In this document: piece by piece, positions 4,430-25,806 of the stretch
How positions within the stretch are numbered: position 1 is the stretch's first letter
How the letters are laid out: every line of letters begins with the position of its first letter
Origin: a virus
Taxonomy: Duplodnaviria; Caudoviricetes
DNA length: 25,806 nt
Virus record (IMG/VR): IMGVR_UViG_3300044448_004934
Location: 1 to 25,806 of that record
Direction: 5' to 3' (one strand)
The notes under the pieces: model-generated
Database searches by the model: none
Seen by the model: only the letters and a program-made list of their open reading frames with translations
What the model was told of the DNA's origin: nothing
Position numbers and translations under genes: made by a program

Positions 4430-4651
4430 TCAAGGAGAATTAACCAAATCCATAATACTGATATTCGGAAATAACATAGCCTTTTTTCGGGTTGATTGTC
4501 GCATAGCCTTTTCCAATCTAACTGCTTTTGTCCTCAGGCACTGATAATTAAATAGCAGTTCAGTCCAAGTTAATTTAAGCAAATCAGAAGGTAGACAATT
4601 GTAATTAGTGGCCATAACATCAAGCACGTCAAATATCGTTTCATCTTCTTC
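4430..4651 (-). CDS. Tail assembly chaperone, gpT-like extension, probably translated by +1 frameshift from the upstream ORF
   Basis: 'NCLPSDLLKLTWTELL' resembles gpT/gpGT C-terminal motifs. The frame stays open upstream of the GTG at 4627 back past the upstream ORF's CTT TGA, and the GTG has no SD of its own. Confidence 0.7.
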   Translation of the reverse strand, partial: EEDETIFDVLDVMATNYNCLPSDLLKLTWTELLFNYQCLRTKAVRLEKAMRQSTRKKAMLFPNISIMDLVNSP

Positions 4652-4664
4652 AAAGTGCCCTCCT
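4650..4664 (-). other. Programmed +1 ribosomal frameshift signal, prfB-like (AGG AGG GCA CTT TGA)
   Basis: SD-like AGGAGG, 3-nt spacer, then CTT TGA: the same layout as prfB AGG GGG TAT CTT TGA. The +1 frame is the downstream gpT-like ORF. Confidence 0.7.
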
Positions 4665-5147
4665 TAAAGCATCGGCCGCTTTTTTATGCCCGATTAGGCA
4701 GAGTTCAATCATTTGTTTTCGGTCTTCTTCCGTAAACATTCCTACCCAAAGACGGTTATTTTTACTGCATTGTCTTTTTTCATCCAGAACAACAGTAAAA
4801 TCCTGCCATTTTTCGCCTTTATCCATGGATGCCCTGGTGATACAACGACATAGTACTTTATCCTGGTTTTCGGCCATTTGTAATATCTTGTCAGCATCGA
4901 AGTTTTTTAATGCGTTAAATAATTCCTCGGCATTATCTTCGTTTACTTCATCATTACCCTTTCCAGCTTTCTGAATGGTTATTAAGTCCTCTTTGTTGGC
5001 TATCCCAGATGCTATTAGTGCGGAGCTTATACCAACCGTTTGAGATTCAACGGGGGATAGTATCCTGCCCTCGACAATCAATTTTCCCTCAAAGGCTGGG
5101 TAAGTCCATCGGGAGTTACCAATTATTTCTTTCATAAATGCTTGCAT
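4650..5147 (-). CDS. Tail assembly chaperone, gpG-like
   Basis: Lies between tail tube and TMP. Likely start is the ATG at 5147 (AGGTGG RBS 5 nt upstream), giving 165 aa; the ORF track starts at GTG 5156. Confidence 0.8.
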   Translation of the reverse strand: MQAFMKEIIGNSRWTYPAFEGKLIVEGRILSPVESQTVGISSALIASGIANKEDLITIQKAGKGNDEVNEDNAEELFNALKNFDADKILQMAENQDKVLCRCITRASMDKGEKWQDFTVVLDEKRQCSKNNRLWVGMFTEEDRKQMIELCLIGHKKAADALRRAL

Positions 5148-5214
5148 TATTTCCACCTAATTTTTGCATTATTATATTTTTTCATTAATTTAAATAAAGA
5201 TAATTAATATCTAC

Positions 5215-6237: not shown

Positions 6238-7020
6238 CTAATCAGTTAATGGAAATAAGTTTCTTGTCTGTAATGTAGCATTGAGACTCAACTTTTGGTT
6301 AAAATTTGTTCCGTGGGTTTGCACGATAAGATTAACAGTGTAATCAGCGTTATTTGTTCCTTCTGCCACACATACACCGACCCATCCAGGAATAATAACG
6401 GTTAATTCTTCCCTCAGTCTATCTGTATGTGTACTACCAGCCGAATCATAACTAAACATCTGCACATATTGTATTGCTTCAAAATCAAGCTTACCATTAT
6501 AGGGCTGCAGTCTTTTGGCCAATAACGAAGAGACTCTAAACCAGATGTAAACATCATCGGTTGGTGTCTTCTGAAATACCGCACTCGGTGTTCTCGTACC
6601 ACTTCTTGGGATAGGGTCGCCGACCACTCTAAGTGACGGCGCATTTAAATGGATTTTACCAGTCTTTACACCCGATGGGCTAAAACTGCTACCAAGGCTC
6701 GATGCCTGGTCTGGGTTATTCCAATAGAGCCAGACAACCGATATGCTGTTTCGATTACCAAAAGTTACATTATCAAGGTCTATAGTACAAACCCGATTGG
6801 TTTTGCTAAAAGATGCTGCCTGAATCTGAAAAGTCAATAGACTACCAAGCCCATCAGCGACGATAATATCGAATCCATCTGCCCTGATATTTTCCCAAAA
6901 ATCGTCGAAGTCCGCAGGGACGGAGAACTCGACATCCTCTGCCCCAGATGTTTCGGCTCCACCCAATACATTAACGGTAACAGGCCATCGTGATTTCCAA
7001 TTTGAATTATACCAGGTCAT
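6238..7020 (-). CDS. Virion protein: DUF2341-like N-terminal domain plus fibre-adaptor-like C-terminal domain
   Basis: 'WYNSNWKSRWPVTV...ADGFDIIVAD...LTFQI...WLYWNNP' matches the DUF2341 pattern from memory. C-terminal 'KTPTDD...EGTNNADYTVNLIVQT'. Confidence 0.5.
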   Translation of the reverse strand: MTWYNSNWKSRWPVTVNVLGGAETSGAEDVEFSVPADFDDFWENIRADGFDIIVADGLGSLLTFQIQAASFSKTNRVCTIDLDNVTFGNRNSISVVWLYWNNPDQASSLGSSFSPSGVKTGKIHLNAPSLRVVGDPIPRSGTRTPSAVFQKTPTDDVYIWFRVSSLLAKRLQPYNGKLDFEAIQYVQMFSYDSAGSTHTDRLREELTVIIPGWVGVCVAEGTNNADYTVNLIVQTHGTNFNQKLSLNATLQTRNLFPLTD

Positions 7021-7023
7021 TTA

Positions 7024-7476
7024 TTAACTCCCATCATCGCTACGGTATGAAACAGTTACTTTGACATAGCCGATACCGCAACCCTCGACACCAAATGAAT
7101 CGCCTTCGATGGCTGTAAAATCGCATTTAACATCGTCAACCAATGCACCCAGGGATAACTGTCTATTTGCCGTTATTGCCTTGATGAAGTCACTACAAAC
7201 GTTAAGTGCAGCATCGGAACGACTAATAGGGTTTTTGCCATTAACGAAAGCGTAAATCTCAAATATTGCCTTGCCCTGATATTTTCCCATAGTCGGACCA
7301 AAGTCCTCCATTGAATCCACAAACCGAATACAGGCACGTGGAACCATTATCGGCTCGGGTTCAATGCCTCTTATCACTCGGTTTGTAAAGTCAATCGCTG
7401 AATATCCACCAGCAAAATCAACTGCCGTTAACTCTGCTAATTTTTTATGGATTTGAACTATTCGACTATCGGCCAT
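7024..7476 (-). CDS. Tail completion/terminator protein
   Basis: 150 aa, position before the tail tube, 'ANRQLSLGALV...VKVTVSYR' pattern. Confidence 0.65.
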   Translation of the reverse strand: MADSRIVQIHKKLAELTAVDFAGGYSAIDFTNRVIRGIEPEPIMVPRACIRFVDSMEDFGPTMGKYQGKAIFEIYAFVNGKNPISRSDAALNVCSDFIKAITANRQLSLGALVDDVKCDFTAIEGDSFGVEGCGIGYVKVTVSYRSDDGS

Positions 7477-10907: not shown

Positions 10908-12944
10908 TTAATCATAAACTGGCCTGGAAATTGTGGAGCAACGGCAATTTATATTCAACCCGACATCATTAAAGCCTGTCGGCCAATTTGCTTTCGCTCC
11001 TTGGTGGTCACCATGTGGCACCTCAAATAAATTATATACATCAACGGTTTGACCATCCAATGCCTGATGTGCTGGTCTTACCTTATCATCCCGCTCCGTA
11101 ATCCATTCCTTTATGAATCGTACTTTCTTATCTGGCTCATTTTCCAAATCTACAGCAGCATCTGTTGTAGCTGCATTAACCAGTTTCGTCGATTCCGTTC
11201 TCGATATTGTAATTACTCTACTGGTTGATAATGCTGGAATTTTTTCCAATTCCTTTTTTAAATCATCGGGTGCCAGTGTTGTTTCCAACCCAATAAAAAA
11301 TTGACGCAAACCTTCAATTGTAGTCTTATATATTTGTGTTGTCATTAACCCAAGAAAAGTCAATGGCTTTACATTGCTAATTAAACCAACCAAGGCACCG
11401 GCACCAATCAAGTCACGTAGTCGGTTGCTTTCCTCCCGATAATTTTTTTCGTATATCTCAACAAAAGGCTCTTCAAAATTATCCTGAGCGATTCGGGTAA
11501 AATTATCCTCAGTCAATAACTCGTCAGGGTTGCTTTTGATGTTGTAAATCAAGCCAAGTGTTTTCTTTTGATCTATTCTCGAGAAAATATGCCTTTTTAT
11601 ATCACTCATAAAACTAGATGAAGCATTTATCAAAAGATTTTCGGCTGGAGCTTGTTTTGTCTCTACCCAGGATTGCCAGATGTTCGCCCTTTCCTGTTCT
11701 TGGTTTTTTACAACCGCTTCAATAAATGCAGAGTTTTTTTTTTCATCGTCAAGTGGTGGCTCTTTAACCGGTTCTACTTCAACCGGGCGAAAAACTGGTT
11801 TGACTTCCGGGGCATCTTCCAGTCCCTCATAGGCATAGGCATCCTGTGGTTTCATCCCATTCTGTATATGCTTTTGGATTCGCTCCAATGCCTTATCTCT
11901 ATCACTCAAAGCATCGATATGATTAAAATCATGAACAACCCTTAAATCATCCGACCATAATTTAGCAAGTTTCGTGTAGACTATTTCAAGCTTTCTGGCT
12001 CGATGCTGCTGGTTAACCCAATAGGTTTTTCGCTGGTTTAACGAAGTCGCATAATTCGCATCGGGGATACCAAGTATTGTTGGTGGTATACCAATAGCTG
12101 CCGATATGGATTGCCTTGCCATCAGTCTTGCTTCCTTGTATTCCATTTCTCGTGGTGAAAGGTTTAAAGTCTCTATTTTAGCCATGCCACTGAGGGCAAT
12201 AGCTCCACCCTTTTTCGCCATTTTAGTATACGACGATATAATCTCTTCTCGTACCTCTTTAGGCCATACATCGGCCTCATCGGAAGGGCTAATTAATATA
12301 TCTGGCCTACCTTGAGCAGAAGCCTGCGAAGCCAATAACATCGCATTTGTATCGCTCTTGAGTTCTTCGTAGAGAGGCTGTATCACACCTGTTCCGTATA
12401 GACTTTTCGGACCCTTCGTATAGCTTGCATTTCTACCATAGAGGACTTTTGCAATATCATAAATTACTTCCTGCCCATAACTACTATTTTTTACACCCTT
12501 GATACCAATCGTTTTATCCGTAACAAATTGTGTTTCTTCGGGGTGAAGTCTTATCAATGATGTTGGCAGTTTTCCAGCACCAATCATCAAAATGAAAAAT
12601 GTTCCATTGAGTATTAAATCTAGGGTGATTTGCTGTCGAAACAAATACCCATCCATCATTGTACTTGGGTTGTTCAAAAGGTCTTTCACCGGGTGACTAT
12701 CAAGTATTATGCTGTCTTTACCTGTTCCTCTTATTACTTTTAGTGGTAAGGCACTTAAGTCCTCAGTGCAGCGTGTTATAGCCGCATATAAATAAGCATG
12801 TTCGCCATAGGCTTCCAGGGCATCACGACTTGGGAAAACTGGTTTGTTACCATAGGGGCTATCCCAAGAAGCACCCAGGTTTTCCTTTTTAGGCTTTGTT
12901 GTGATAGCCGGTTGTCGTTTCTTTAGAAAATCCCAAAAAGCCAT
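10908..12944 (-). CDS. Portal protein fused to a MuF/SPP1 gp7-like minor head domain
   Basis: Portal motifs 'DLSALPLKV', 'LLNNPS', 'AAIGIPPTILG..NYA'. C-terminal 'ISRTEST', 'KEWIT..DDKVRPAHQALDG', 'INCRC'. GAGGTG RBS before ATG 12944; the ORF track starts at GTG 12953. Confidence 0.92.
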   Translation of the reverse strand: MAFWDFLKKRQPAITTKPKKENLGASWDSPYGNKPVFPSRDALEAYGEHAYLYAAITRCTEDLSALPLKVIRGTGKDSIILDSHPVKDLLNNPSTMMDGYLFRQQITLDLILNGTFFILMIGAGKLPTSLIRLHPEETQFVTDKTIGIKGVKNSSYGQEVIYDIAKVLYGRNASYTKGPKSLYGTGVIQPLYEELKSDTNAMLLASQASAQGRPDILISPSDEADVWPKEVREEIISSYTKMAKKGGAIALSGMAKIETLNLSPREMEYKEARLMARQSISAAIGIPPTILGIPDANYATSLNQRKTYWVNQQHRARKLEIVYTKLAKLWSDDLRVVHDFNHIDALSDRDKALERIQKHIQNGMKPQDAYAYEGLEDAPEVKPVFRPVEVEPVKEPPLDDEKKNSAFIEAVVKNQEQERANIWQSWVETKQAPAENLLINASSSFMSDIKRHIFSRIDQKKTLGLIYNIKSNPDELLTEDNFTRIAQDNFEEPFVEIYEKNYREESNRLRDLIGAGALVGLISNVKPLTFLGLMTTQIYKTTIEGLRQFFIGLETTLAPDDLKKELEKIPALSTSRVITISRTESTKLVNAATTDAAVDLENEPDKKVRFIKEWITERDDKVRPAHQALDGQTVDVYNLFEVPHGDHQGAKANWPTGFNDVGLNINCRCSTISRPVYD

Positions 12945-14404: not shown

Positions 14405-14433
14405 TTGAGTTCTCCTTGTTGTTGTGTTGTTGT

Positions 14434-15002: not shown

Positions 15003-15421
15003 TACCGACCTCCATTTATGTATATATATTTCTCGACAATATCTATGTTATGTTCGATATTAATTCCTTTTATCGCTTGGTTTGCTGCAATTTCGGCTGA
15101 TATAAATGTTGGTTTTATTTTAGCAAAATATTCGTATTCTTGAAGTGAACCACCATATGGTAGATTAGGTCTTCGTAGTGACCGCCTTGCCTCGCTTCTT
15201 GCTTCATCTATTCTATTCTCAATGGCTGTACGTCTTCGTCTTCCACCAGTATATAATATTCGGTTTAAAGACTTAATTCGCTCGTCCCTTGTTACTGCAC
15301 TTTTCATCATTTGAGGGTCTATTGTTAAGCTCATCATTTTCGCTGCTTCTTCGATGGATATATCATCGAAATATGCGTTTCTTAAAATGTCTTGTTCTGG
15401 TAGCCTATATGGGTTTTTCAT
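15002..15421 (-). CDS. Hypothetical basic protein
   Basis: 139 aa, first gene after promoter copy 1, CAA-rich leader. Confidence 0.7.
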   Translation of the reverse strand: MKNPYRLPEQDILRNAYFDDISIEEAAKMMSLTIDPQMMKSAVTRDERIKSLNRILYTGGRRRRTAIENRIDEARSEARRSLRRPNLPYGGSLQEYEYFAKIKPTFISAEIAANQAIKGINIEHNIDIVEKYIYINGGR

Positions 15422-15453
15422 TGTTGTTTTCCTGTTGTTGTTGTTGTGTATAT

Positions 15454-15491
15454 AGTTTAAGGTATTACTTTAAGTTTGTAAACAACTATCT
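15454..15491 (-). promoter_or_regulatory. Sigma70-type promoter, repeat copy 1
   Basis: TTTACA-17 nt-TAAACT. 22 nt (15470-15491) identical to 18083-18104. Confidence 0.75.
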
Positions 15492-15509: not shown

Positions 15510-16274
15510 TCAACCATCATAACAATCACAGGCAACTGGTAAATCAAACATTTTCACCTGCGATTTTTCCTGGTCAATAAGTCTTCTCCAACTATATTTT
15601 CCACCCAACCCTTTGATGGATGTTCCTTCTTTTAGGTTTGCATTATCTTCGATTGCAATTGCACGGTCAAATAATTCTGGATTACATGATGCAAGTTGTT
15701 TAACCTCTTGAACTTTCATACTTGGGCAAAAGAAACAAGATGATTTGCCCGGTAAAGGTATATTTGCATTTTTAATGATTTCTATACATTCCTCTCTGCC
15801 ATAATCCCATTCTATTAATGGGTACCAAACCTTATATTTATCATCATCGTAAATTTTTTTGGTTCGATGATGTTCGTCGGCATCAATACCAATAATTTTA
15901 ATTATTTGATTTCCTTCATTCCAAAAATCTATACACTTTTTTTGGCTTTTCATAAATTTATCTATAGGAGTTTTTTTGAACTTTAGACTACAAGATTTGA
16001 ATCCATAGATAATACTCGGAAGTGATTTGTATTTATGGCAAAATTGTTCAAGATTTAAGTTCTTCCCATCCTTCGTTTTATATTGTACCGTGATAATTCC
16101 TGGATAGCCCTTTGAGCGAATCCATTTATCCATATAGGCCACATGTTTATATGTCTTAGGTCTTTCTCCTCCGGTATCACTAAATAAAATAAAATCGACT
16201 TCTATTTTTCTCCGTACTATTTCGATTAATAATGCTGTAGAATTGGTACCACCACCAAATGTTAATAATTTCAT
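15510..16274 (-). CDS. PAPS reductase-like (PP-loop, Cys-rich) protein
   Basis: 'TFGGGTNSTALL', 'FSDTGGE', 'CSLKFK', 'GIDADE..R', 'YPLIEW', 'KSSCFFCP', C-terminal 'CDC'. Confidence 0.85.
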   Translation of the reverse strand: MKLLTFGGGTNSTALLIEIVRRKIEVDFILFSDTGGERPKTYKHVAYMDKWIRSKGYPGIITVQYKTKDGKNLNLEQFCHKYKSLPSIIYGFKSCSLKFKKTPIDKFMKSQKKCIDFWNEGNQIIKIIGIDADEHHRTKKIYDDDKYKVWYPLIEWDYGREECIEIIKNANIPLPGKSSCFFCPSMKVQEVKQLASCNPELFDRAIAIEDNANLKEGTSIKGLGGKYSWRRLIDQEKSQVKMFDLPVACDCYDG

Positions 16275-16834: not shown

Positions 16835-17314
16835 TTATTGGTTGTTGTTGTTTTTATTAAATTTATTTTTAACTTCTTTATTAATATATTTTACAGCATC
16901 ATCGATAGATGTAAAAGTACATGAGGCATAATATGCTTCTCTTTCCCTATCTCTTTTCTCCTGCTCTTTTCGCCTTTGTTCGCATTGTCTTTTGCTCATC
17001 ATGTAGCTAATACTGATTTGCCTTTTTTCTTTCCACAAATCAGGTGGGTCTATCATTTGCCTCCATGGTTTATCATAGTCCAACTCGATTACATTTTCCT
17101 GTATTGCCTTTTTTAGTTCTGCAATAGATTTAAAATGGAAGAAGTTATCACCCTGGAAAACTTGAATTATATCGTAATCAATACCTTCTTCCGGCAACCA
17201 ATTTTTGAACTTTAAGTAAATGCCTTCGGTCCGAAACTTATAATAAGAGCCTGGTGGGTTATGGTTTGCTGTATCCGACATATATTGCAGATAAATATCC
17301 TTATAGTCTTTCAT
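16835..17314 (-). CDS. Hypothetical protein
   Basis: 159 aa, GGAGGTG RBS, TAATG overlap. Confidence 0.7.
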   Translation of the reverse strand: MKDYKDIYLQYMSDTANHNPPGSYYKFRTEGIYLKFKNWLPEEGIDYDIIQVFQGDNFFHFKSIAELKKAIQENVIELDYDKPWRQMIDPPDLWKEKRQISISYMMSKRQCEQRRKEQEKRDREREAYYASCTFTSIDDAVKYINKEVKNKFNKNNNNQ

Positions 17315-17781
17315 TATTCACCTCCCAGGGTGTATTTTTTACGCTTTTCAGCGGATACATGCCTTTCCATATATTCAACCATGTAATGCTGGATAATGCT
17401 GGATATACTCTCCTCTATCCTATATTCTCCAGGGCTTTTATTGTATCCGTGAGTAACGTAATATGTCATTTCTCGGTTTATGAGCTCCTGGATACTCTTT
17501 TCTACCTCATCATAAATACCGATTACAACTTCATCCGATTCGTTGAACCAGCTTACAGCAGCAGCAAAGCAGTTTGTAAAATGCGACCCCGGAACAAATA
17601 ATGCTTCTGATACATCTATTAGACTCTCATCACCTGTATAAATCTTTAAGAGTAGGTGGTGGGCAGTTGTTCGAGCTTCATCCCTGGTGGTATCATATAC
17701 CGATATGGAAGAACTTCCTATCAGGCAATTCATACCCATTTGGAACGCTTTTAATAGTCTTGTCTTTTTTTCTTCTTTCAT
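17314..17781 (-). CDS. Hypothetical protein
   Basis: 155 aa, CAA-rich leader with AAGGA. Confidence 0.7.
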   Translation of the reverse strand: MKEEKKTRLLKAFQMGMNCLIGSSSISVYDTTRDEARTTAHHLLLKIYTGDESLIDVSEALFVPGSHFTNCFAAAVSWFNESDEVVIGIYDEVEKSIQELINREMTYYVTHGYNKSPGEYRIEESISSIIQHYMVEYMERHVSAEKRKKYTLGGE

Positions 17782-17805
17782 TGTTGTTGTCCTTGGTTGT
17801 TGTTG

Positions 17806-18033
17806 TTAGTTATTGGCAATTTTATTGATTTTTTCAGTTATTTCATGACCTATTGTAAGGGCTCGTGCTTTGTTATTTTTTCGGTTATGTATTTCTCCAT
17901 TTTTTTCGATTGTTACGTAATCTCTACCAAAATATATTCTTGCTTTGCCATGGTTTTCCCATAACCTTGGTCTTTCACCATAATAGTTAATTTCATTTTC
18001 TTTTAGTTTTTTGATTAAAGTTTGGTTTGTCAT
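17806..18033 (-). CDS. Small phage protein (WExxGKxRIYF motif)
   Basis: 75 aa, first gene after promoter copy 2. Confidence 0.7.
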   Translation of the reverse strand: MTNQTLIKKLKENEINYYGERPRLWENHGKARIYFGRDYVTIEKNGEIHNRKNNKARALTIGHEITEKINKIANN

Positions 18034-18066
18034 TATTGTTTTCCTCGGTTGTTGTTTATATATATA

Positions 18067-18104
18067 CTTATAAAGTATTATCTTAAGTTTGTAAACAACT
18101 ATCT
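18067..18104 (-). promoter_or_regulatory. Sigma70-type promoter, repeat copy 2
   Basis: TTTACA-17 nt-TATAAG, immediately after a terminator. Confidence 0.7.
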
Positions 18105-18106
18105 AC

Positions 18107-18134
18107 AAAAAAAGTGCCGAAAACTCGACACCTT
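18107..18134 (-). terminator. Intrinsic terminator after the ERF gene
   Basis: GTGTCGA-gttt-TCGGCAC-TTTTTTT. Confidence 0.8.
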
Positions 18135-18820: not shown

Positions 18821-18972
18821 TGTTTTATCCTGTTGTTGGTTGGTTTTAGTTGTTGATTAATCACACAGCACATAGCAAATATGACTATGATGCCAAGTAG
18901 TGTGATATGACCGATGAAGGGTAGTTTTATTATCGGATAGTGGTGAAGCATTAGCCAGCATTGTTCAATCAT
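18817..18972 (-). CDS. Small membrane protein, 51 aa (not in ORF track)
   Basis: MIEQCWLMLHHYPIIKLPFIGHITLLGIIVIFAMCCVINQQLKPTNNRIKQ. ATGA overlaps at both ends. Confidence 0.55.
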   Translation of the reverse strand: MIEQCWLMLHHYPIIKLPFIGHITLLGIIVIFAMCCVINQQLKPTNNRIKQ

Positions 18973-19633: not shown

Positions 19634-19885
19634 TTACGTAGCTGGTTCTACAATAAAATCTAAAATCGTATTTGGATGATCCTCTGTAATTATGTAGTCT
19701 CTACCGCAAAGACAATCTTTGGCCGTGCAAAAACTATTTGATTCGGGGAATACAATTTCTAATACTTTTTGGTGACCTCCTAAGCGTTCATAGGTGCCAT
19801 ATACCTTAACTTCTATTTCTTCTTGTGTGTTGTGGAAACTGTTACCACATGTGATCAGAACTTTTTCTATTTGATTGTTTTTCAT
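19634..19885 (-). CDS. Small hypothetical protein, possible metal binder
   Basis: 83 aa, 'CGNSFH...CTAKDCLCG'. First gene after promoter copy 3. Confidence 0.7.
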   Translation of the reverse strand: MKNNQIEKVLITCGNSFHNTQEEIEVKVYGTYERLGGHQKVLEIVFPESNSFCTAKDCLCGRDYIITEDHPNTILDFIVEPAT

Positions 19886-19916
19886 TGTTGTTTTCCTTTG
19901 TTGTTGTTGTTTAATT

Positions 19917-19945
19917 AATTTAAGGTATTATTTTATACTTGTAAA
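19917..19945 (-). promoter_or_regulatory. Sigma70-type promoter, repeat copy 3
   Basis: TTTACA-17 nt-TAAATT, with the shared TAATAC spacer motif. Confidence 0.7.
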
Positions 19946-19955
19946 GGAAAAAGAT

Positions 19956-19980
19956 AAAAAAAGGAGGGTTTTACCCCTCC
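19956..19980 (-). terminator. Intrinsic terminator after the fibre gene
   Basis: GGAGGG-gtaaaa-CCCTCC-TTTTTTT. Confidence 0.85.
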
Positions 19981-20003
19981 CATAATCGGCTATCTTTTAC
20001 AAT

Positions 20004-21888: not shown

Positions 21889-22281
21889 TTAATGCGTTTT
21901 AACTGATAAAATTGTATCGTCTACATCACCACTTCCGGCATCTAATTTATAGAAGATATACCAATTCTCTACACTCGCATAGAGAACGGCATTAATAGCA
22001 ATGACCGCAGACCCTTTCGTTGTCGTTGTCAGTCCTCTATCGATGGATGCACTTGTATCAGGCAAAATGATATTATCACCTGCTGCATCACTGGATATTT
22101 TCACCGATACAGCAGTCGTTGAAACTGCTAAATCGCTTAATTTAATCTGAATTGAATTAAGCTCCGAAAGATAGTAATCCTGCAGGGAAAAACTCATATC
22201 AACGGTTGATTTCTTGTTAACGTCGTATGATGTACTAATCGATGAGGCAGATGTTGAGCGGAAAAATGAATAATTTGCCAT
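21889..22281 (-). CDS. Ser/Thr-rich putative virion protein
   Basis: 130 aa, AGGTG RBS, beta-rich, upstream of the fibre genes. Confidence 0.55.
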   Translation of the reverse strand: MANYSFFRSTSASSISTSYDVNKKSTVDMSFSLQDYYLSELNSIQIKLSDLAVSTTAVSVKISSDAAGDNIILPDTSASIDRGLTTTTKGSAVIAINAVLYASVENWYIFYKLDAGSGDVDDTILSVKTH

Positions 22282-22313
22282 TTTACACCTATAAAAATTT
22301 TAAATCATTTCAT

Positions 22314-22350
22314 AAAAATAAAGCCGGGAGGTCAACAACTACCTCCCGGC
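22314..22350 (-). terminator. Intrinsic terminator/attenuator upstream of the virion gene at 22281
   Basis: GCCGGGAGGT-agttgttg-ACCTCCCGGC-TTTATTTTT. Confidence 0.8.
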
Positions 22351-22393
22351 AAACAACAATGTTAAAAACAACAAGGATGATTCACCAGGAATC
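22314..22393 (-). ncRNA. Candidate trans-acting sRNA (about 80 nt) with UUG-rich seeds
   Basis: Promoter TTGTGT-17-TAAACT (22428-22400), 5' hairpin GATTC/GAATC, single-stranded AUCCUUGUUGUUUUUAACAUUGUUGUUU, then a 10-bp terminator stem. Confidence 0.5.
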
Positions 22394-22492
22394 GAGTAAA
22401 GTTTATCCGATTTTATTTACTAACACAAATGTATTTTATCGTAATATTTTATAAAATCAATTTGTAATATCTTAAATCTGATATTATACTAG

Positions 22493-22565
22493 TAATTAAT
22501 TAATTCTTATTTAATTTAATTAATAATTTTAATTAATAATTTAATAATTAATTAATTAATAAAAA
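22493..22565. other. Extremely AT-rich TAAT-repeat tract in the divergent intergenic region
   Basis: 73 nt containing a single C and no G. Confidence 0.8.
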
Positions 22566-22602
22566 CTAATACAACAACACAACACAACACAAGGAAGAAC
22601 TC

Positions 22603-23487
22603 ATGCAGAGATTTTATCATATCAAATTATCGGATAGCCAAAAGAAGGACTTAACCGATTCCGAATTGGCTTTTGTCAAGCTTTTCAACACTTGCCGATG
22701 GGCATACACTAAGCAACGAAACCCATTAGATATTTTTCGTAACTTTAAAAATCCAAAAAACCATAACCTCATCCAGGTGATGCAAATGATACAAAAGTAT
22801 TTTCAAGGATTAATGAAATCGGGTAAGCAGAGAAATATATGGCGGGAGCTAGATTGGGAAAGTAGTTTCCAGGCATGGATACTCCGTATGTCACCGGTAA
22901 TTGACGAGAAAGAATTAGATAAACCAATTCATGTAACCGAAGAAAATCAACCAAGAACCACCCAGGAATATAGATTACCGAAGGAAGACGAAATATTTGA
23001 ATTGATAGAAAAGTATCAGCAGATGGAGTTTGTCCTATCGGATGAGGAACTTAAGAAGTTTCAAACCATATTTGATTATTTGATAAAAGATTTTCGTCCT
23101 CAATCCATAAACACATACGGTAATTTATATTTTAACTATCATTATGAATCCGCTGATTACATGAAGGAATTACTTCTTTTACGAATCGATACCGTAACGA
23201 AAAGATTAGAAAAAAATGAACTCGATATTTTCCTGGCCTGGTGTCTCAATAACGATAACAAATGTTCCTGGCTTTTAGTCTGGACTTTCTGTAACTTTTT
23301 TGAAGGTGTGGAAAAGGCTGAAAAGGATTTGACGAAGACCTCTTTTGACGAGTTCTTCCAGCTTGGAAAATACAAGCCACAACCGGAAAATGAAAACATA
23401 AAGAATGGTTATATCAATATCAATTTTGATAGTAACAAAGTCTATTCGTTGCGAGATATACGAAGGATGGTGACCGATGATGGGTAA
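22603..23487 (+). CDS. Hypothetical protein, possibly replication-related
   Basis: 294 aa, CAA-rich leader with AAGGA. 'DWESSFQAWILR' resembles the DWxxxFxxW motif of DnaT-like/phage replication domains (weak). Confidence 0.55.
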   Translation: MQRFYHIKLSDSQKKDLTDSELAFVKLFNTCRWAYTKQRNPLDIFRNFKNPKNHNLIQVMQMIQKYFQGLMKSGKQRNIWRELDWESSFQAWILRMSPVIDEKELDKPIHVTEENQPRTTQEYRLPKEDEIFELIEKYQQMEFVLSDEELKKFQTIFDYLIKDFRPQSINTYGNLYFNYHYESADYMKELLLLRIDTVTKRLEKNELDIFLAWCLNNDNKCSWLLVWTFCNFFEGVEKAEKDLTKTSFDEFFQLGKYKPQPENENIKNGYININFDSNKVYSLRDIRRMVTDDG

Positions 23488-23659
23488 ATACGAGAACAAA
23501 AATATTGTATATGGTGGGAAAAATTACATCAATTCCATCATAGAATTGACCCATTCGGAAAGGGATAAATTGGAATACATTCGAAAAAAACTAAAATGCA
23601 AGACGATAAACGCTGCCATTCAAAAGCTATTGAAGCAGGCTATCAAGGAGGCCGAATGA
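23477..23659 (+). CDS. Small ribbon-helix-helix-like DNA-binding protein
   Basis: 60 aa, 'SIIELTHSERDKLEYIRKKLKCKTINAAIQKLL' strand-helix-helix pattern. Confidence 0.5.
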   Translation: MMGKYENKNIVYGGKNYINSIIELTHSERDKLEYIRKKLKCKTINAAIQKLLKQAIKEAE

Positions 23660-24125: not shown

Positions 24126-25806
24126 ATGGATATTGGAAAGGAATATATAGATAGCAGAAAAAAGAATGGTATCGCTGCAGAATATGTTGATATTGATTCG
24201 TTAAAATTAGCACCTGACAACCCGAGAATAAATGAGCATGTAGTTGAAAAGGTGGCAAAATCAATTCAATCCTATGGGTTTGCGGCACCAATAGTCGCAC
24301 AATTGGATGGTACAATCCTGGCCGGGCATACAAGGTTTAAAGCGGCGAAGAGCTTGAATCTTTTAAAAGTACCCTGCCGGTATATGGATATAAGTGGAGA
24401 TAAGGCGAAACTTTACAGGATAGCCGATAACAAGCTTGGTGAGTTGGCCGACTGGAATCTAGACATGCTCGGAAAGGAACTGGAAGAACTAAGCGAGAAT
24501 TATAAGCTTGAATTAAATGACATGGGTTTTTCAGATGATGAGCTTCTAAAATATATGGATATAGATATATCAGAGGATCAAGAAGAGAATCAGGAAACAG
24601 ACTTTGAAGCCCTGGATAACAAAGAATACGAGCCGGGAGAAACCTTCGAAGCGGGAAAGGTTATCGAGGTTGGAACGGGCAAGATAATTTGTGGTTGCTG
24701 CATTGAAACAATGCGAAAAATGCCCGAGGCGTCGATAGATTCCATTGTTTGTGACCCCCCCTATCAAATCAACTTTATGGGGTCGGCCACCGGGTGGGAT
24801 AAAGAGTTTGACTCCGATGAATGGAGCCGGCAATGTTTACGGGTACTCAAACCAGGTGGACATCTGATCGCCTTTGCTGCTACCAGAACGATCCATAAGA
24901 TTATGGTATCCGTTGAAAAGGCAGGATTCGAGATCCGTGATCTTTTGTCTTGGTTGTATTTTTCCGGCTTTCCTAAATCAATGAATATTTCGAAACAGAT
25001 CGATAAAATGGCAGGGGTAGAAAGAAAAGTTGTTGGAGAGTATCAAGTTAGCAGAGTTTTTGATGGTTCTGATCTTGTTGGTGGTAATGTTAAGGCAGGA
25101 TCTTTAAACATAACCAAACCAGCAACACCGGACGCTATAAAATGGGACGGTTGGGGTACTGGCCTCAAACCCGCACAGGAACCCGCCGTCCTTGCACGTA
25201 AACCAATGGAGAAGGGGCTATCGATTACCGCTAATGTTTTAAAGCATGGGACGGGTAGTTTGAACATAGATAAAAGTCGTTTTGGTTATGGTGATCCGTG
25301 TTGGGTTGGGCCAAATAAAGATCCTGGAGATGTTATTTTCTACAACAGTAGCAATTGGCAACCTAACAGCAAAGCCGGTACACATAGCAAAGGAATTAAT
25401 GTAAAACACAACAGTAACAAGTTAGGCCGATGGCCTGCCAACATCTACCAATGTGCGAAACCGTCCAGATCGGAAAGGGATCAGGGGTTGGAGGACTTCG
25501 AACCGATAAAGGGACATGAATCCGTAAACAGAAAAGAGGGGTCGGCGGGTCTTGAGAATCCACGAGCCGGATCAGGTCGCACGGCCTCGGAGGTAAAAAA
25601 CTATCATCCAACCGTCAAGCCGGTAAAATTAATGGATTGGCTTGTTGGACTGGTTACCCCTCTGGATGGGGTTGTATTGGATACATTTGGCGGTTCCGGT
25701 ACTACTGGACTGGCCGCAAACCTAGCCGGATATAAATGGATCTTGATAGAGAAAAATCCGGATTATTGCAGTATCATTCATGGGAGGATTGCAGGCAATG
25801 ACAAAG
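24126..25806 (+). CDS. ParB-N domain fused to an N4C/N6A DNA methyltransferase (beta class), truncated at the window edge (not in ORF track)
   Basis: My translation shows 'DNPRIN...SIQSYGF..PI...ILAGHTRFKAA...RIADNKL', then 'IVCDPPY', 'RVLKPGG', 'HPTVKP', 'VLDTFGGSGTT'. The frame is open to the end of the window. Confidence 0.93.
   Translation, partial: MDIGKEYIDSRKKNGIAAEYVDIDSLKLAPDNPRINEHVVEKVAKSIQSYGFAAPIVAQLDGTILAGHTRFKAAKSLNLLKVPCRYMDISGDKAKLYRIADNKLGELADWNLDMLGKELEELSENYKLELNDMGFSDDELLKYMDIDISEDQEENQETDFEALDNKEYEPGETFEAGKVIEVGTGKIICGCCIETMRKMPEASIDSIVCDPPYQINFMGSATGWDKEFDSDEWSRQCLRVLKPGGHLIAFAATRTIHKIMVSVEKAGFEIRDLLSWLYFSGFPKSMNISKQIDKMAGVERKVVGEYQVSRVFDGSDLVGGNVKAGSLNITKPATPDAIKWDGWGTGLKPAQEPAVLARKPMEKGLSITANVLKHGTGSLNIDKSRFGYGDPCWVGPNKDPGDVIFYNSSNWQPNSKAGTHSKGINVKHNSNKLGRWPANIYQCAKPSRSERDQGLEDFEPIKGHESVNRKEGSAGLENPRAGSGRTASEVKNYHPTVKPVKLMDWLVGLVTPLDGVVLDTFGGSGTTGLAANLAGYKWILIEKNPDYCSIIHGRIAGNDK

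Follow-up and report, generated by a model that had tools for sequence, protein, structure and literature searches.

The minus strand of this phage record encodes, at 22393-22314, what is likely a small RNA able to switch off the translation of many early genes together. For the full version of this reading, a lytic timer that damps early translation with a delay, we estimate a probability of roughly 0.55. The window (i.e., the whole stretch of DNA analysed) is a whole 25.8-kb virus record of a tailed phage, and its 38 proteins, compared with PHROGs, include a portal, a head protease, a tail tube-like protein, a tape measure, an ERF recombinase, and a ParB-methyltransferase. Throughout, "early" and "late" are labels given by gene content and promoter position, not by timing data. 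The unit sits between phage genes 22281 and 22603 and consists, in order, of a promoter, a 5' hairpin, a U/G-rich linker of 28 nt, and a terminator hairpin with a GC stem of 10 bp:

22423..22428, minus strand: predicted -35 box, 3/6 consensus in the window, aligned with TTGACA of L034, L035, and L036
22400..22405, minus strand: predicted -10 box after a 17-nt spacer, hexamer identical to that of the early promoter at 15482-15454
22314..22393, minus strand: predicted small RNA of ~80 nt, with an inferred start 7 nt past the -10 box
22379..22393, minus strand: 5' hairpin of 5 bp, pairs kept with other letters in three relatives, G-U pairs on this strand
22367..22377, minus strand: seed A, complementary to the SD and the upstream CAA repeat, best helix 11 bp with the 14404 leader
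22351..22361, minus strand: seed B, complementary to the spacer and AUG, its CAU part private to the window phage and close strains
22323..22350, minus strand: terminator hairpin of 10 bp with an 8-nt loop at 22333-22340
22314..22322, minus strand: U tract, read from the sequence
21889..22281, minus strand: downstream small virion-block gene, 33 nt past the U tract, syntenic marker for 9/20 units

The 5' hairpin, the terminator with its 8-nt loop, and the U tract fold as the first-pass annotation had claimed, with a z of about -4.9. The 28-nt linker is U/G-rich as described; its description as unpaired needs the qualification that it can form a weak 5-bp hairpin. The terminator loop is likely a third seed, and the outermost bases of its 10-nt match are the closing pair of the stem. 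The claimed promoter is a weak consensus match in the window, overlooked by our initial promoter scan and scoring below the threshold used when all 20 units described below were scanned; it is supported by the alignment of its boxes with a TTGACA-17-(-10) arrangement in L034, L035, and L036. Judged from sequence only, the unit has the promoter and intrinsic terminator of its own that are expected of the sRNA class. No second promoter was evident in the 33 nt ahead of gene 22281, and that gene needs read-through or a further, unseen promoter.

All of the matches to early-gene starts listed in the first-pass annotation were confirmed in the sequence, and an eighth predicted target, absent from its list, was added:

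19883..19893, minus strand: start of gene 19885, 11 nt, perfect
18847..18856, minus strand: leader of the ERF recombinase gene 18820, 10 nt
18031..18041, minus strand: start of gene 18033, 11 bp with one G-U
17779..17788, minus strand: start of gene 17781, 10 nt
16845..16856, minus strand: leader of gene 16824, 12 nt, a match that would be shorter in close strains
15419..15429, minus strand: start of gene 15421, 11 nt, perfect
14413..14423, minus strand: SD of gene 14404, 11 nt, the strongest predicted target
22571..22602, plus strand: CAA leader of the divergent gene 22603, predicted eighth target

Genes 19885, 18033, and 15421 each come directly behind one of three similar promoters, so that the first gene behind each of these early promoters is indeed matched, and homologues of gene 22603 are likewise among the top targets in G001, G005, and G006. 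When the linker was paired with all 38 start regions of the window, the top eight partners ranged from -21.3 to -15.8 kcal/mol, the next standing at -13.6; these eight are the eight genes with unstructured CAA leaders (0 to -2.5 kcal/mol for the target leaders), and none of the 16 virion genes is among them. With the whole RNA and opening costs included, energies of -4 kcal/mol or lower were reached in 10/22 non-late vs. 1/16 late start regions (p 0.04). The difference between all early and late genes was not significant (p 0.07, 18 vs. 16 genes) because 11 of the 18 early genes have no called CAA leader. Perfect 10-mers of the linker occurred in 5/38 start regions, compared with at most 3 for 45,110 control windows. 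However, this margin was lost with shorter words (17 control windows equalled the linker at 9-mers and 226 equalled or exceeded it at 8-mers), and dinucleotide shuffles matched the observed values in 5/300 cases for the duplex and 17/150 for the contiguous helix. In the window alone the pairing is therefore largely compositional, and the case is modest and only suggestive.

Relatives carry the argument further. The unit is present in L034, L035, and L036 (= G001), between the homologues of genes 22603 and 22281, and a metagenome contig (L054) holds it as well, identical to L036 across the unit. The stems of this group (clade 1) keep 36/36 pairs, with five compensatory columns: counted from the loop, nine terminator pairs persist in all four distinct units, and in five columns both partners have changed. 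Pairing also persists in the 5' hairpins despite their different letters, and the stems hold five G-U pairs that can be read solely on the minus, or unit, strand. Invariant across clade 1 are an 11-nt core of seed A, offset two bases 3', and the first 7 bases of the loop. The anti-AUG part of the seed is not shared across these relatives; the anti-AUG seed proposed earlier therefore holds for the window phage and its closest strains only, the conserved seed being directed at the SD and upstream of it. In the four of four sequencing runs of close strains that cover the region, the 80 bases differ at only two positions, both between the seeds, and seed B is unchanged in all four. Since the rate of change of the unit in the single contig spanning the region is not below the contig average (37 in 901), these changes are informative by placement only, not by rate. 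The seed of G001 pairs with that phage's own ERF leader over 15 bp. In pattern searches, the element pattern gave 7 loci in viral contigs (three true, four discarded as lacking hairpins) and 22 in metagenome contigs (one true, L054), while none of the 23 loci with the exact terminator-stem pattern in viral contigs had the linker, and a protein search (query A1) of metagenome contigs gave no matches.

More distant family records were reached via homologues of gene 22281 and of the capsid (capsids 38-44% identical), and units in them, one per record, were found by descriptor and then by ranking hairpins according to how well their upstream 28 nt paired with the leaders of their own record. In total, 20 such units, in seven seed groups, were found among related phage records. 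Among the 19 records examined, the unit ranked first in all eight with at least three called leaders, gene starts in relatives being taken from a simple in-house caller. With relaxed leader calling it came first in five of six further records (G001, G002, G004, G005, and G006); G014 yielded no unit and five records had too few leaders. When the ranking was fixed beforehand, the unit was first in only three of six new genomes, and these three passes are weak: G021 offered a single candidate, G022 closely resembles G005/G006, and the margin in G020 was 1.4 kcal/mol. The units of G018, G019, and G023 were recovered afterwards through synteny, that of G019 pairing weakly. No candidate unit was found in G008, G012, G013, and G014, more distant records mostly without called leaders. 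G008 (+7850) and G012 (-18344) each have a strong hairpin that holds UUGUUG in its loop and is followed by a U tract; it pairs poorly with their called start regions.

Each lineage has its own leader text, mirrored by the seed of its unit: a CACUCAA repeat with an AAUCAA spacer in G005/G006, a GCUACC spacer in G004, the GCAAACGAC block in G002/G003 (up to -43 kcal/mol), a CGGAGAA ribosome site paired via one G-U in G007/G018/G020, and, in clade 2, leaders with three A ahead of the SD. When seeds were compared against all called start regions, the own group was best for 12/13 (group permutation 1/720) and, after seven later records were added, for 17/20 (group permutation 1/5040 with seven groups), a matrix that is partly circular since pairing with own leaders was how the units of G002, G004, G005, G006, and G007 were originally selected. 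The preference for own over foreign leaders was greater for nine units than for 34 other terminators (p 0.0002), and helices of -8 kcal/mol or lower were formed at 165/408 non-structural vs. 46/295 structural start regions, counts that are pooled and not independent. The non-circular part of the comparative case is position: 6/22 loci with a homologue of gene 22281 have a unit directly upstream, with three seed types, to which G019 and G022 add; the types found at the syntenic position of the window are those of clade 1, G004, and G005/G006/G022. Covariation of seed with targets, as expected of the sRNA class, is thus seen between groups, and matching of own vs. neighbouring leaders within clades was not significant (p 0.82 and 0.11). 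The co-conservation of seed and leaders that the first-pass annotation proposed as a check is positive across all seven sequence groups, and it supports the minus-strand small RNA, predicted to pair in trans with early-gene starts. By these sequence comparisons the conserved element is real and its comparative support strong.

In capsid and tail-tube trees, groups 1, 2, 4, and 6 and the pair G018/G020 form clades; G007 is grouped with that pair by seed type and stands apart from it in a small-protein tree. In several units, anti-SD bases lie within the 5' hairpin. The terminator loops of three clade-2 units (G009 19876, G021 4563, and G023 25315) carry anti-SD text, which makes them candidates for a second seed, parallel to the clade-1 loop with its anti-CAA text. 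A descriptor match in L078 (+1778) was dropped, being the reverse of a real leader. At ~7000-7035 of G007 (L078 1750-1805), an early leader opens with a 5' GC hairpin and adjoins the unit back to back; such units may have originated from inverted leaders.

The placement of the units fits a movable cassette running from promoter to terminator. Twelve of the 20 lie ahead of virion or packaging genes, at a distance of 44-105 nt measured from the start of the hairpin; nine precede a homologue of gene 22281, and three a homologue of gene 4650-5156 in the tail-assembly region. The other eight stand after the end of one gene and ahead of an early gene with a leader, so the location at the head of the late region, as first described, holds for 12/20 units only. 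In G010, G011, L039, and G020, the next early gene after the unit has its own operator-bearing promoter, and in clade 2 the unit promoter is embedded in the last codons of the upstream gene. A -35 box starting with TTG and a -10-like box precede all 20 units (17 with a 17-nt spacer), 13 of these promoters reaching a score met by 10% of random places, and by inspection a U tract follows in 18/20, G001 and G019 being without one. In G002, G018, and G020, small cassettes of early genes, each with a promoter and a leader of its own, are dispersed among the virion genes and frequently lie on the other strand, and gene blocks are shuffled between records of the family.

Early promoters carry an imperfect palindrome between the -35 and -10 boxes, with a lineage-specific consensus, which is likely a repressor operator. 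In the window it is found at:

18072-18084, 15459-15471, and 19922-19934, minus strand: spacer palindromes of early promoters

It was also found in early promoters of G010, G011, L039, G020, G001, and L034, and the spacer of the unit promoter was without it in the 14 records examined. The idea of an activator site ahead of the unit promoter was rejected, since the operator-like match there (2-4 mismatches) was no better than 26-32 background sites in the window, G001, and L034. A 60-aa protein encoded at 23477-23659 (plus strand of the window) gave weak ribbon-helix-helix leads (Pfam below cutoff; Atlas 0.91) and is a candidate binder of the palindrome; a small gene upstream of clade-2 units resembles it by eye. 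Terminator-like hairpins at 19962-19981 and ~18112-18132 (minus strand) end the virion block and the ERF block, each followed by the next early promoter.

The name "GcvB-like", given to the RNA in the first-pass annotation, is apt for its predicted mode of action and fails as a family assignment. GcvB is encoded by a chromosomal gene beside gcvA and has amino-acid transport targets, whereas the unit lies between phage genes 22281 and 22603 with phage early genes as predicted targets. The Rfam model of GcvB gave no match in the window, nor in 22250-22480 at E up to 10, where the best Rfam match was Hrs13 (20.5 bits vs. a gathering score of 52), and no family reached threshold in the window or in seven relative loci. 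GcvB silences ACA translation enhancers (PMC3879156) and shares with the unit an unpaired U/G-rich seed directed at ACA/CAA enhancers beside the SD of many mRNAs (PMC3879156, PMC4104026). The unit differs in being ~80 nt long, phage-encoded, and aimed at the phage's own genes, and in a seed that lineages exchange for another sequence, one other than a G/U repeat in G002, G004, and G005; a G/U-rich unpaired seed against C/A-rich leaders is present in the window, and the seeds of groups 4-6 are not G/U repeats. A similar ~80-nt, phage-encoded, trans-acting repressor is the CI RNA of P4. The c4 RNA of P1/P7 (RF01695; PMC8546580, PMC2864571) is also a phage trans RNA of ~80 nt, and it represses phage genes via short single-stranded seeds; however, c4 is processed and controls an antirepressor operon, whereas the unit has its own promoter and terminator and ~5-10 scattered leaders as predicted targets. 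The Rfam C4 models had no match in the window and no gathering-level match in the seven relative loci, and, as regards a linked icd/ant immunity operon as target, no antirepressor family was recognised among the 38 window proteins, though most early proteins there are without any family. The unit, as predicted from sequence, acts in the manner of GcvB and is similar in size and origin to c4, and it is a member of neither.

Among other systems, the start-associated sequences (SAS/ESAS) of Cluster K mycobacteriophages (PMC3203893) resemble the leaders of our family in tagging the ribosome sites of non-structural genes privately, and often adjoin inverted repeats with a subcluster-specific consensus. 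They differ in that their sequence is unrelated and in that, here, a candidate partner RNA varies in step with the tag. VpdS and PreS (PMC12197685) and SviR (10.1101/2022.04.08.487710) are also phage or satellite trans RNAs with several mRNA targets; in the literature covered, their described targets are host genes, host sRNAs, or a helper phage rather than a shared early-gene tag of their own.

On the reading that we prefer, host RNA polymerase would transcribe the unit from a promoter that looks host-type and is without the early palindrome, yielding an ~80-nt stand-alone phage RNA in which the linker and the terminator loop are exposed and complement C/A-rich ribosome-binding leaders; its predicted targets are early and replication genes of the phage itself. 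By pairing across the enhancer, SD, or AUG, it would keep ribosomes off and repress translation, and since the helices cover these elements in unstructured leaders, ribosome occlusion is the likeliest effect. The absence of the palindrome from the unit promoter suggests that this promoter is unrepressed and that the RNA accumulates, rather than being late-activated; building up after infection, it would damp early translation with a delay, in parallel with a protein repressor acting at the early-promoter palindromes. Where the unit precedes virion genes, as in the window, these are probably reached by read-through, which would be a secondary arrangement. We consider RNA-RNA pairing with the phage's own leaders highly probable from the sequence comparisons, and repression as its effect probable.

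The same pairing and repression could instead serve a resident state (a plasmid-like prophage or carrier), in which early and replication genes would be kept silent and immunity would be lineage-specific, as with c4. The unit promoter has the look of a constitutive promoter without an operator, seeds and leaders vary by lineage as immunity types do, the early promoters carry lineage-specific palindromes, the targets include the recombinase and probable replication genes, and c4 itself offers the precedent of a trans-acting 77-base antisense repressor (PMC8546580). Lytic shut-off is nevertheless favoured because no integrase was found in the proteins scanned, and we regard the resident state as unlikely: neither an integrase nor a recognised repressor family was present among the 38 window proteins (PHROGs) or among 58 proteins compared with Pfam, 24 of which belong to the 41 called in the complete G010, and there was no clear prophage in GTDB genomes. 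A single-protein search of GTDB gave no match, and an alignment search gave two MAG contigs, with capsid identities of 35% and 27%, that were not accepted as hosts. We judge it improbable that the motif is a protein site, whether a DNA operator in either orientation or an RNA-guided protein complex, or that pairing stabilises or activates messages. The Cluster K leader tags have an undefined RNA or protein partner, and four genomes have one reversed copy (PMC3203893). However, in our family compensating hairpins, whose G-U pairs fall on one strand, flank the reversed copy, and seed-leader mismatches lean towards G-U-compatible changes (23 vs. 14), a weak tendency seen in just 4/7 groups. As for the sign of regulation, the leaders are unstructured (0 to -2.5 kcal/mol) and leave an activating RNA no site to unmask, and it is the SD or AUG that the helices cover.

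It is quite improbable, in our estimate, that the unit at core serves the virion-gene block in cis, as a leader or attenuator like the lambda pR'-tR' arrangement, with incidental complementarity. The 12/20 units placed closely ahead of virion or packaging genes, the lack of an evident second promoter before gene 22281, and the missing U tracts of G001 and G019 would suit such a role, and attenuation may be a second role of the unit. Since the other 8/20 units precede leader-bearing early genes, four of which have operator-bearing promoters of their own, attenuation is not the core role, and the late-attenuator caveat of the first-pass annotation is accordingly disfavoured; it would also leave unexplained why seeds track distant leaders. 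We give very little credence to the remaining possibility, that the matches are chance low-complexity or that the plus strand is the working one, as a CAA/GGA decoy for CsrA or a host GcvB-type RNA or as a mini-gene with a leader of its own. The plus strand of the window does hold a CsrA-like consensus, and leader-like text ahead of two ATGs, and the opposite strand of G002/G003 reads by eye as a leader, an SD, and a 12-codon frame. AgvB, which carries CACAACA and blocks GcvB, is a precedent (PMC4104026). However, the GGA consensus of a CsrB/RsmY-type decoy occurs in 1/20 units, on a strand without promoter or terminator, and 9/20 units lack any GGA motif sought, which speaks against the decoy considered earlier. 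The clade-1 relatives have no ATG there, and the promoter boxes, the U tracts, and the five clade-1 G-U pairs favour the other strand.

Returning to early-gene repression by the minus-strand RNA, we favour, at somewhat better than even odds, a broader proposal as well: that the leaders and the unit form an RNA address system, in which the early regulon is labelled by a private leader tag that a single movable cassette of promoter, seed, and terminator reads, with tag and seed re-keyed together between lineages, alongside the promoter operator, so that translational shut-off or immunity is specific to the lineage. The whole early regulon appears to be addressed by one RNA via a lineage-exchanged tag; if true, phage gene control would have a further layer, widespread and so far undescribed, that explains start-associated sequences in general. 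The kind of control is predicted to be trans-acting antisense, and its own-early-regulon variant appears new. Known phage antisense RNAs have a single gene or operon or the host as target within the literature covered, and the consulted portions of that literature, including a 2025 review (PMC12197685) and leaving subscription journals mostly outside, held no phage RNA reading a shared tag of its own early genes. The seven natural seed-leader groups provide a ready comparison of cognate with foreign pairs and a possible source of orthogonal RNA-leader pairs, and they make it testable whether an RNA reads the start-associated tags of mycobacteriophages.

The sequencing runs that contain the window sequence are seawater or marine metagenomes, or unlabelled metagenomes, and no RNA dataset was among the 24 runs listed. 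Against cultured phages the capsid had a single match, of 26.5% identity, and an Atlas search with protein 22603 gave no usable match. DNA-modification genes differ across the family (a PAPS-reductase-like gene, the ParB-methyltransferase fusion, QueC, and C5 and N4/N6 methylases):

window 15510-16274 and 24126-25805, G002 11578-12129, and G010 26605-28902: variable DNA-modification genes

Beside gene 22603, very AT-rich TTAATTAA-like repeats were seen at ~22490-22570 of the window and ~2700-2760 of L034; in relatives, this tract near the gene includes a (TA)n run, and it is a possible replication origin.
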